Source of the DNA: a virus
Lineage: Duplodnaviria > Heunggongvirae > Uroviricota > Caudoviricetes
IMG/VR virus record: IMGVR_UViG_2609459826_000002
DNA: 64,000 nt
Direction: 5' to 3' (one strand)
Shown piece after piece: positions 49,021 through 50,509 of the stretch. The position numbers and the translations under genes are program-made. Below the pieces are notes generated by a model, which did not search any database, was not told where the DNA came from, and worked only from the letters and a program-made list of their open reading frames with translations. The stretch's first letter is position 1; each line of letters opens with the position of its first letter.

Positions 49021-49536
49021 ATGGGATTACTGGGCAGGATTAAACAACTGATAAGTGAAAATGAGAAACCGGCGGAAGTCACCCGCGTGATGGCACCGCT
49101 GTCCGGTGAAATTGTCCCTCTGGACACGGTTCCGGATGCTGTGTTTGCCGGGAAAATAGTGGGGGATGGTATTGCTATCCGTCCTTCCGGCGGCGATACC
49201 TTGATGGCTCCTGTCAGCGGCACTATCGGTAAAATACTGGAGACAAACCACGCGTTTTCCATCCGCACCGACAGTGGCACTGAACTGTTCGTGCACTTCG
49301 GTATTAACACAGTTGACCTCAGGGGAGAGGGTTTCCGGCGTATTGCCCAGGAAGGCCAGCTGATCAGCACCGGTGACCCCGTCATCGGGTTTGACCTTGC
49401 GTTACTTCAGCAGAAAGCACAGTCCACGCTGACACCGGTGATTGTGGCGGACTCTGACCGTGTCCAGGAGATAACCCTGTTCTCCGGCCCGGTCATCGCC
49501 GGAGAAACACCGGTTTTTGATATCAGCAGCCAGTAA
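49021..49536 (+). CDS. PTS glucose-type EIIA (Crr-like) paralog
   Basis: 171 aa from ATG 49021 (AAGGAAAG RBS); close match to IIA-Glc pattern (APLSGEIVPLDTVPDAVFA.KIVGDGIAI.P...GTIGKILETNHAFSI..DSGTELFVHFGI). Confidence 0.8.
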   Translation: MGLLGRIKQLISENEKPAEVTRVMAPLSGEIVPLDTVPDAVFAGKIVGDGIAIRPSGGDTLMAPVSGTIGKILETNHAFSIRTDSGTELFVHFGINTVDLRGEGFRRIAQEGQLISTGDPVIGFDLALLQQKAQSTLTPVIVADSDRVQEITLFSGPVIAGETPVFDISSQ

Positions 49537-49600
49537 GCGCCATGAGTGACAATATCGCCAGCGGGCAGCTGGTATCAGGGAAAGCCGCACATCTGGCCTG

Positions 49601-50509
49601 GTGCGGGCTGGTAAACGTTTCGATCGTGACAACTTTGATATCCACTGGCTGGACTCGGACGTGGTTTTCCTCGGCGGAACCGGGGGCGGTATCTATGACG
49701 TGAAATGGAACGACACTCTGCGCAGTAACTTCTCCCTGTATGGACGCAATTTCGGGGAGATGGAGGATATCGATAACAACGTCCAGAACTATATCCTTAC
49801 CATGAACCACTTTGCCGGGCCGTTCCAGCTTATGGTCAGCGGTATGCGGGCAAAGGATAATGATGACCGCAGGGACAATAATGGCGACCTTATCCATGCC
49901 AGTGCCGCCAGCCACGGTGTGCATGTGTTGGCCGGACTTCATAATGACAGTTTCTGGGGATTACGTGAGGGAACGGCGAAAATAGCACTTCTGTACGGGC
50001 ATGGTCTGGGGGCGGAAGTGAAGGGGATTGGCTCTGACGGTGCACTACGCAGTGATGCGGATACTTGGCGTCTTGCTGCATATGGTACCACCCCGCTCGG
50101 AAACGGCTGGCATATCGCCCCGTCAGTCATGGCGCAGGGCAGTAAGGATCGCTATGCCCGTGGAGACAGTTATGAATGGGTGACCCTGAACACCCGCTTG
50201 ATTAAGGAGGTGACGCAGAATTTTGCGCTGGCGTTTGAGGGCACTTACCAGTATATGGATCTGAAACCTGAAGGGTATAAGGACCGCAATGCTGTTAACG
50301 GCAGTTTTTACAAGCTGACGTTTGCGCCCACCCTCAAGGCAGGAGGTCTGGGGGACTTCTTCAGCCGTCCGGAACTGCGTCTGTTCGCCACCTGGATGGA
50401 CTGGAGCAGCAGACTGGATAACTACGCCAGTGATGATGCTTTCGGCGGTAGCGGGTTTAATGCAGGCGGGGAATGGAATTTTGGCGTTCAGATGGAAACC
50501 TGGTTCTGA
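49601..50509 (+). pseudogene. 5'-truncated sugar porin (RafY/ScrY-family) fragment
   Basis: Lacks ATG and signal peptide (ORF track starts at a GTG); aligns to residues ~205-505 of the intact porin at 58889-60406; homology begins at [14 protein letters not shown]. Confidence 0.7.

Follow-up and report, generated by a model that had tools for sequence, protein, structure and literature searches.

This analysis concerns a raffinose (raf) island of Escherichia coli, in particular the gene for a glucose-class IIA protein of the phosphotransferase system (PTS) that follows rafD and the porin remnant behind it. The island lies in a 64,000-nt stretch of DNA filed as the Caudoviricetes record IMGVR_UViG_2609459826_000002, hereafter the window, in which all coordinates are given unless stated otherwise. 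Window positions 39601-60509 are 100% identical to contig JNPJ01000107.1 of assembly GCA_000703665.1, the window's own source. The sugar block of the window contains the raf operon with rafR, rafA, rafB and rafD in canonical order and all four full length, then the IIA gene, the remains of a porin gene and of mobile elements, and an intact sucrose (scr) regulon. The loci compared below are the raf island of E. coli ECCNB12-2 (L001; NZ_CP033635.1, 349985-359687), E. coli ET776 (L002; NZ_CP100909.1), the scr-only island of E. coli AW1.7 (L033) and plasmid pIP1206 (L034; NC_010558.1). The features of the sugar block, including its insertion sequence (IS) elements, are as follows.

42968-43978, plus strand: rafR, LacI-family repressor of the raf operon (LacI-family matches; 79% identity to pIP1206 RafR)
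44072-46198, plus strand: rafA, alpha-galactosidase of family GH36 (Pfam Melibiase/GH36; 87% identity to pIP1206 RafA)
46253-47530, plus strand: rafB, LacY-family raffinose permease (TIGR00882, 673 bits; 88% identity to pIP1206 RafB)
47527-48957, plus strand: rafD, GH32 invertase (TIGR01322, 445 bits; 83% identity to pIP1206 RafD)
48967-48987, plus strand: GC-rich hairpin with a 9-bp stem, then a weak T tract, in the 63-nt rafD-IIA spacer (terminator-like scan)
49021-49536, plus strand: IIA(Glc) paralog, intact, 171 amino acids
49542-49613, plus strand: start of a DUF2913 gene, first 24 codons (100% identity to L001 13543-13614)
49610-49613, no strand: crossover GGTA of a 2,161-bp deletion (window against both L001 flanks)
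49610-50509, plus strand: pseudogene remnant of a ScrY-type sucrose porin, codons 200-498 of 498 and stop
50515-50540, plus strand: perfect 11-bp stem-loop AACGCTCCCGG-TGTA-CCGGGAGCGTT directly 3' of the porin stop (read from the sequence), probably the original transcript end of the porin gene
50746-51525, minus strand: remnant of an IS1414 (IS256-family) transposase gene, 5'-truncated (Pfam Transposase_mut positions 145-377 only; RefSeq annotation of the same L001 segment)
51593-54768, plus strand: IS3-family element split by a group II intron (ltrA 52990-54513)
54947-61510, minus strand: intact scr regulon with scrR, scrB (55981-57381), scrA encoding an EIIBC protein (57381-58751), scrY (58889-60406) and scrK (60572-61510) (NCBIfam TIGR01322, TIGR01996 and PRK09434; Pfam)

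The IIA gene runs from an ATG at 49021 to a TAA at 49536 and encodes a protein identical to RefSeq WP_000523728.1, which is annotated 'crr'. This protein carries PF00358 (EIIA_1), which places it in the glucose class of PTS EIIA domains, scores above the curated cutoff of NCBIfam PRK09439 'crr' (PTS glucose transporter subunit IIA; 235.9 bits against 212) and matches solved IIAGlc chains with E = 1e-62 to 1e-63. It is about 60% identical to Crr of K-12, a reference sequence corroborated by the PDB matches and by near-identical database entries. The active-site histidine, His75, and the phospho-acceptor, His90 (as numbered in mature E. coli IIAGlc), are both intact, in the motifs TNHAF and FVHFG. 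The gene is not a housekeeping crr, as it lies 63 nt after rafD and not in ptsH-ptsI-crr, and its product has G43, N94 and D97 in place of the conserved rim residues E43, D94 and E97. A first, sequence-only reading of this DNA had recognised the intact IIAGlc paralog, two GH32 genes (rafD and scrB) and a ScrA devoid of IIA, and these observations all stand; ScrA was found by NCBIfam and Pfam to consist of EIIB and EIIC domains only. The same reading described the IIA gene as fused to the porin, which is incorrect since the IIA gene has its own stop codon and is a separate gene.

Behind the IIA gene, an open reading frame (ORF) of 302 amino acids (49601-50509) opens at a chance GTG 64 bp downstream. 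Nearly all of its residues (301/302) are those at positions 197-498 of the 498-amino-acid porin of the ECCNB12-2 island (WP_000716410.1). It aligns with the intact ScrY of the window at residues 206-505 only (74.7% identity) and with the Pfam LamB profile PF02264 at positions 103-378 of 378 only (E = 6.5e-67), a likeness well outside what chance would give. The GTG and the next two codons are DUF2913 sequence with a chance likeness to V-W-A of the porin; true porin sequence begins at G200 and keeps the C-terminal ETWF. The remnant lacks a start codon of its own, a signal peptide, an N-terminal coiled coil and any match to PF11471, there is no Shine-Dalgarno-like sequence ahead of the GTG at 49601, and no promoter-like site was found between the IIA gene and the frame. 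It is thus homologous to the LamB/ScrY sugar porins (PF02264; TCDB 1.B.3), with an incomplete barrel that sets it outside their functional members, and at the sequence level it reads as a dead pseudogene. An additional chance ORF of 53 amino acids (49542-49703) is the start of DUF2913 continuing out of frame into porin DNA.

In the ECCNB12-2 island, the progenitor porin begins with what resembles a signal peptide and contains both a LamB (PF02264) and a Sugarporin_N (PF11471) domain; it shares 69% identity with the ScrY of the window, and its closest full-length relatives are the named sucrose porins of Enterobacter, Cedecea and Kluyvera (82-85% identity). Neither remnant nor progenitor belongs to the RafY glycoporins (PF16966 Porin_8; TCDB 1.B.15): both match PF02264 only, and the pIP1206 RafY aligns with the progenitor porin at 31% identity over 99 amino acids only. 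An assignment of this porin to RafY was ruled out by these two comparisons. TCDB likewise sets the RafY family apart from the sugar porins (PMC4827864). The sequence-only reading was accordingly right in placing one intact and one decapitated porin paralog in the window, the latter 64 bp after the IIA gene, without start codon and signal peptide and alignable with a ScrY-type porin only from about residue 200, and was mistaken in the RafY half of its label RafY/ScrY-type. Public assemblies contain further calls of this or related ScrY-type porins that are short at the N-terminus (P0181, 321 amino acids and 58 member sequences; P0182 and P0184, 344 amino acids), which suggests that these porins are recurrently truncated or frameshifted.

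Alignment of the interval between the IIA gene and the porin to raf and scr plasmid sequences had been proposed as a way to the breakpoint; alignment to the ECCNB12-2 island located it at 49610-49613. The ECCNB12-2 island is annotated, in order, with a LacI-type regulator, an alpha-galactosidase, an MFS transporter, a GH32 hydrolase, crr, DUF2913 in two fragments, a kinase, a porin, an IS1414 remnant and an IS3 with a group II intron; the kinase is labelled 'aminoimidazole riboside kinase' (PfkB family, scrK-like) and the porin is the 498-amino-acid carbohydrate porin mentioned above. Window 48000-49613 corresponds to L001 12001-13614 with 100% identity and window 49605-51500 to L001 15767-17662 with 99.7% identity, and the offset between these flanks leaves 2,161 bp missing from the window. 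Base by base, the identity of the left flank stops at 49613 and that of the right flank starts at 49610, so that GGTA is common to both, within an imperfect microhomology of 11/14 matching positions (GGTGCGGGCTGGTA versus GGTATGGGCGGGTA). The deletion allele has the junction string CTGGTGCGGGCTGGTAAACGTTTCGATCG. No mobile-element end was found at the junction, the nearest IS sequence being more than 1.1 kb away. Collinear flanks, few shared bases and no mobile-element end are together what defines a microhomology-mediated (illegitimate) deletion, and the junction shows all three.

The missing 2,161 bp comprise the 3' part of the DUF2913 gene, the whole PfkB kinase gene, whose product is 68% identical to the ScrK of the window, and porin codons 1-199 with the upstream region. 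The porin has thereby lost its promoter, start codon, signal peptide, N-terminal coiled coil and about the first 100 barrel positions, and the raf island is left without a porin or fructokinase of its own. The DUF2913 gene was already frameshifted in the undeleted island, where the Pfam DUF2913 domain was found on a fragment. We read the scar as an internal deletion in a known E. coli raffinose island, a case of ordinary gene decay, and assign to this structural account (deletion, pseudogene and position of the raf/scr seam discussed below) a probability of about 0.88. An insertion in the other genomes instead of a deletion here was considered and rejected, because with the extra 2,161 bp two genes become complete, DUF2913 and one for a porin with end-to-end homology to ScrY. 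In the proposed course of events, a progenitor raf island would have lost 2,161 bp between two short imperfect repeats, with the crossover in GGTA, leaving porin codons 200-498 behind as a dead pseudogene and the IIA gene untouched. The loss would probably have been tolerated since ScrY and ScrK are available from the intact scr regulon lying 5-12 kb to the right; ScrY passes raffinose as well as sucrose.

The frequency of the deletion allele was examined with a 401-nt query centred on the junction in 5,426 complete E. coli genomes and 72,556 PLSDB plasmids. No record in these collections covers more than about half of the query, and the two halves are held separately by 250 E. coli records and 9 plasmids. 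The island without the deletion occurs in about 245 of the complete genomes (roughly 4.5%), with both flanks collinear and 99.7-100% identical, and the IIA gene with its spacer in 244-247/5,426, always at 99% identity or more. An exact look-up of the 302-amino-acid protein returned the window's source contig and two assemblies of separate read runs (ERR11042080 and ERR14883559); around the junction, both match the window at 100% identity over 1.6-2.6 kb. The deletion allele is real but rare; it is a new variant of an island which, with its genes and the 'crr' annotation, is already in RefSeq.

These records also bear on what the junction joins. The sequence-only reading saw a recombination scar after the IIA gene and took it for the join of two sugar operons; the scar is genuine, although its flanks are collinear within one island, and the 250 records that have both sides 2,161 bp apart in a single island speak directly against a join there. 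Homology to the raf-type ECCNB12-2 island extends up to window position 54768, and homology to the scr-only AW1.7 island spans 52304-63262. In the latter, the order is IS3 with the group II intron (L033 11250-14382), then scrR-scrB-scrA-scrY-scrK. The overlap of the two homologies places the raf/scr seam at 52304-54768, in a shared group II intron and 3' remnant of IS3 and 3-5 kb to the right of the 49610 junction, which was in turn rejected as the seam. The shared IS3::intron is the likely substrate for homologous recombination between the raf and scr islands. In its 5' part (51592-52309), the IS3 of the window departs from L001 at some 40 positions (roughly 5-6%), so that L001 is probably not the exact parental raf island.

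The junction of intron, IS3 and scrR is common to 26 complete genomes. Four of these, ET776 and its relatives, also hold the raf block, with a different deletion of 4,510 bp (window 49592-54101; L002 12775-12776, that is, window 49591/54102). Its left end is about 20 bp from the junction of the window, it shows 2 bp of microhomology, and it removes the porin remnant, IS1414 and most of IS3::intron. Both deletions spare the IIA gene, and their neighbouring ends could reflect a local hotspot, selection that keeps IIA, or a second event on a window-like background. The ET776-type strains are associated with frog and sediment. The kinase and porin module behind the raf genes is the first part of a second, diverged scr-type regulon cut off by IS1414. 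The island is thus a raf/scr mosaic, as the sequence-only reading sensed, though this join is older than the scar at 49610 and is found at another place.

To place the IIA gene, relatives were sought in a database of 5.8 billion protein clusters. The cluster of the window IIA comprises proteins 98-100% identical, followed by a gap down to about 66% or less. Two paralogs, from Citrobacter braakii (P0079, 62.5% identical to the window IIA) and Klebsiella michiganensis (P0090, 60.4%), are encoded 63-65 nt downstream of a 476-amino-acid GH32 RafD which is 69% identical to the window RafD. Their clusters also hold rafA and rafB (75-78% identical) and a true RafY porin, in a different gene order. 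A second search seeded with the Klebsiella protein returned no further lineage, which makes three lineages in total in the 5.8 billion clusters. A further candidate (P0072, 65% identical) was set aside, its neighbours, a PALP-domain protein and an ABC-transporter ATPase, suggesting a housekeeping crr; we take them to resemble the cysM-cysA genes that flank crr in E. coli. In a scan of species-representative genomes, the only close relative was a 100% identical protein on a single 1,443-bp contig (JAYRPG010000048.1) of a metagenome-assembled genome labelled 'Ferruginibacter', probably an enterobacterial contaminant; otherwise the scan gave distant crr and nagE-type matches only.

In a neighbour-joining analysis, the three rafD-linked types were separated from 36 randomly chosen housekeeping Crr proteins by a bipartition found in 100/100 bootstrap replicates. 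Where at least 98% of 93 housekeeping sequences have the same residue, all three types carry E43G and E97D, and D94N, D94S and D94N, respectively. Common to them, too, are an extra residue inserted after about position 55 and changes at K53, E80 and residues 140-152, and neither active-site histidine is lost in any of the three. Among the 120 best matches, G43, N/S94 and D97 together with the one-residue insertion occur only in these lineages. If the rafD-linked clade is defined, as here, by a position 63-65 nt after rafD, by this signature and by monophyly, the window IIA belongs to it. Between Citrobacter and Klebsiella, the ratio of nonsynonymous to synonymous substitution rates (dN/dS) is 0.13 for IIA and 0.09 for rafD. 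Between the window IIA and either paralog, the proportion of nonsynonymous differences (pN) is 0.24-0.25 and that of synonymous differences (pS) 0.81-0.84, synonymous sites being saturated. With pN low at saturated pS and dN/dS at 0.13, the IIA gene has therefore been under purifying selection throughout. The rafD-IIA linkage is conserved and selected in three diverged raf lineages, and IIA tracks rafD and not scrA.

Comparison of the raf-cluster loci (L034, that is, pIP1206, 6001-9020; L026, 3321-7513; L030, 5505-14513) shows that raf clusters have at least four architectures: rafRABD-rafY; rafRABD-IIA followed by a scr-type module; rafAB-rafY-rafD-IIA; and rafD-IIA...rafRAB-rafY. In relation to the other raf genes, rafD and IIA move together, as a unit of two genes would. 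No publication was found that describes a rafD-linked IIA paralog or a crr paralog in raf operons, nor a usable list of IIAGlc interface residues, in a literature in which older subscription papers were thinly covered. The rafD-linked IIA proteins are a small, unstudied group.

The most likely reading of the IIA protein is that of a functional PTS phosphocarrier whose gene is expressed by read-through from the raf promoter. Beyond this, any specific role is at best tentative. The better supported, at somewhat less than even odds, is that it would act as an extra or dedicated IIA for EIIBC permeases of the glucose/sucrose class. RafD falls in the sucrose-6-phosphate hydrolase family (TIGR01322), and the rafD-IIA pair may descend from a sucrose-PTS operon, which would keep alive part of the sequence-only reading's idea that the IIA gene serves ScrA; biochemical cross-talk of IIA with ScrA is possible. 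More doubtful is a role as modulator of IIAGlc-based control, for example of the RafB permease. Work by Titgemeyer et al. in 1994 reportedly identified RafB as a target of inducer exclusion by IIAGlc. The signature changes lie in segments 38-46 and 94-97, beside the active-site face, which in the IIAGlc complex structures presumably meets HPr, IIB, GlpK and MalK. The rafD-linked IIA proteins could then be a distinct, operon-embedded branch of IIAGlc, produced only while the raf genes are switched on, whose remodelled rim alters its partners, so as to shield RafB and the cAMP signal from exclusion or to serve a sucrose-class EIIBC; we hold this too as a speculative proposal, with the odds clearly against it. 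If it were true, a catabolic operon would carry a private tuner of the global PTS regulator.

The points that weigh against these readings of the deletion and of the IIA gene are best considered together. The direction of the deletion is set by parsimony, which argues strongly for a loss; tolerance through redundancy is plausible, and scr may have been acquired before or after the deletion. The three junction-bearing assemblies could all come from one clone. As for the IIA gene, the 63 nt between it and rafD show no sigma-70-like promoter, and a hairpin lies between rafD and IIA (the spacer fold, over 76 nt, has -23.3 kcal/mol and z = -2.06), possibly a leaky terminator or an mRNA stabiliser that may damp IIA expression. 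The classical plasmid raf operon works without an IIA gene, and IIA is therefore not needed for raffinose use. The idea of an RNA structure conserved between rafD and IIA was considered and dropped: the strong hairpin is found only in the E. coli type, the one in Klebsiella is short, and Citrobacter has none that is convincing.

Among the rival explanations, an assembly artefact would leave the porin truly full length, with 2.2 kb collapsed or dropped from the contig. The source is indeed a draft assembly (a 68-kb contig), and no complete genome has the junction; yet two further, separately assembled read sets give the same junction, the 4 bp shared exactly there (11/14 imperfectly) are far too short to mislead an assembler, and the scrY paralog, 74.7% identical, is too diverged for collapse, which makes an artefact very hard to credit. 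Harder still to credit is a functional product of the 302-amino-acid frame, translated from the GTG at 49601 as an N-terminally shortened porin or as a new protein of the cytoplasm. Its 302 codons are open and gene callers label the product a LamB-family protein, but an open frame is expected anyway after a recent deletion in a previously intact gene. Moreover, the frame lacks a signal peptide and about 100 of the 378 barrel profile positions, its GTG and the two following codons derive from the unrelated DUF2913 sequence, and neither a Shine-Dalgarno-like sequence before it nor a promoter-like site between it and the IIA gene was seen.

The model of the sequence-only reading, in which the junction is the seam of raf and scr operons and IIA was kept to supply IIA function to a ScrA with IIBC only, draws on several true observations. 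The window ScrA does lack a IIA domain, the porin remnant does derive from a scr-type porin, the undeleted island has a scrK-like and scrY-like module after IIA, that is, a historical IIA-scr neighbourhood, and the family of RafD would allow the pair of GH32 and IIA genes to come from a sucrose-PTS operon. We nevertheless regard this model as highly improbable: a single island, intact in about 245 genomes, is collinear with the sequence on either side of the junction, and the raf/scr overlap sits at 52304-54768. Furthermore, IIA follows rafD in raf clusters without an adjacent scrA, and with or without an adjacent scr regulon, and the same scr island occurs without a neighbouring IIA gene, for example in AW1.7. 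Enteric ScrA uses the housekeeping Crr; this being established for E. coli, nothing was 'missing'. A less remote, though still unlikely, alternative is that the IIA paralog is a functionless hitch-hiker beside rafD. The classical IncF raf operon (rafRABD-rafY) has no IIA and still confers raffinose use, a phenotype known from the literature, and IIA evolves faster than the other raf proteins (60-62% against 69-78% identity). However, IIA has stayed intact, both histidines included, in three lineages diverged to synonymous saturation, its dN/dS is 0.13, it keeps the same position and spacer length after rafD in three operon arrangements, and two independent E. coli deletions end 55 and about 75 bp past its stop codon, sparing it. 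An internal deletion that left a selected IIA gene intact remains our preferred account.

A P2-like prophage, with about 97% match to E. coli chromosomes, fills the first 24 kb of the window and is followed by two integrase genes, a YagK/YfjJ-type island gene, a type I restriction-modification locus and then the sugar block, which is 99-100% identical to chromosomal and plasmid islands of E. coli. Island homology begins at 42816, directly after the left of two IS1 copies that flank the entire raf-scr block in direct orientation and are 93.8% identical to each other:

42047-42815, plus strand: left IS1, bounding the raf-scr block (Pfam DDE_Tnp_IS1)
63262-64000, plus strand: right IS1, exceeding the window end

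The IS1-flanked block of about 21 kb resembles a composite transposon, its right IS1 being incomplete within the window. Rfam matches in the IS3-intron element are an ALIL pseudoknot (51874-51990) and Intron_gpII (54517-54603). A partial, tRNA-like match to Rfam (29323-29379, minus strand, 29.7 bits, model positions 9-63; no ARAGORN call) sits between the integrase genes and may be a remnant attachment site of the island or prophage. The P2-like prophage contains a patch of 32.5% GC (16104-18493, plus strand) with two overlapping ORFs of 388 and 408 amino acids. The former has a Pfam NA37 nucleoid-associated-protein domain, the latter has no Pfam match, and PADLOC was also negative for these low-GC cargo genes. 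The pair has the look of cargo at a prophage hotspot and might serve as an unclassified pair of defence genes.

By itself, the scar is textbook gene decay in a mosaic accessory island and carries little weight, apart from the caution that a truncated gene beside an intact one need not mark an operon fusion. The analysis also separates RafY (Porin_8), the ScrY-type porins of raf islands and their pseudogenes, which annotation has blurred. ScrY-type porins in raf islands are, for instance, called rafY in genome-wide association tables (PMC12987596). Of more consequence is the IIAGlc paralog, conserved and under selection, that stands immediately after rafD in raf clusters from three enterobacterial lineages. 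Carbon catabolite control has IIAGlc as its central switch, and a private IIA in a raffinose operon offers a lead on how accessory sugar operons negotiate with the sugar hierarchy of their host, in settings such as the raffinose-rich guts of soy-fed poultry and pigs.

Compared with known systems, the window is closest to the E. coli/Salmonella raf island, chromosomal or plasmid-borne, represented by ECCNB12-2, with which rafR, rafA, rafB, rafD, IIA and the first 72 nt of DUF2913 are collinear at 98.5-100% identity, as are porin codons 200-498 and the debris of IS1414, IS3 and the intron. It differs from that island in lacking the 2,161 bp with the 3' part of DUF2913, the PfkB kinase and porin codons 1-199, and in continuing into the scr regulon, whereas the ECCNB12-2 island continues into a type I restriction-modification locus. 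The classical plasmid raf operon (pRSD2 type, with pIP1206 compared) has the same rafR-rafA-rafB-rafD order at 79-88% protein identity, and 170 plasmids fall in the 80-90% identity band in the RafD comparison; it has RafY (PF16966 Porin_8) directly after rafD and no IIA, in contrast to the IIA and ScrY-type PF02264 module of the window. Relative to housekeeping Crr of K-12 and other Gammaproteobacteria (PF00358, 169 amino acids), the window IIA is similar in its N-terminal amphipathic segment and in length (171 amino acids) but forms a separate clade and differs by E43G, D94N, E97D, F71L, V40A and the one-residue insertion after about position 55. Against the intact ScrY of the window (58889-60406), the remnant is missing the start of the barrel and, ahead of it, the Sugarporin_N coiled coil and signal peptide. 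The scr regulon itself is 99.6-99.9% identical to the scr islands of ET776 and AW1.7. Finally, the ET776-type raf-scr islands share with the window, at 99.9% identity, the raf block, IIA, the IS3/intron-scrR junction and the scr regulon, and carry a larger deletion (window 49592-54101) instead of the 2,161 bp lost here.

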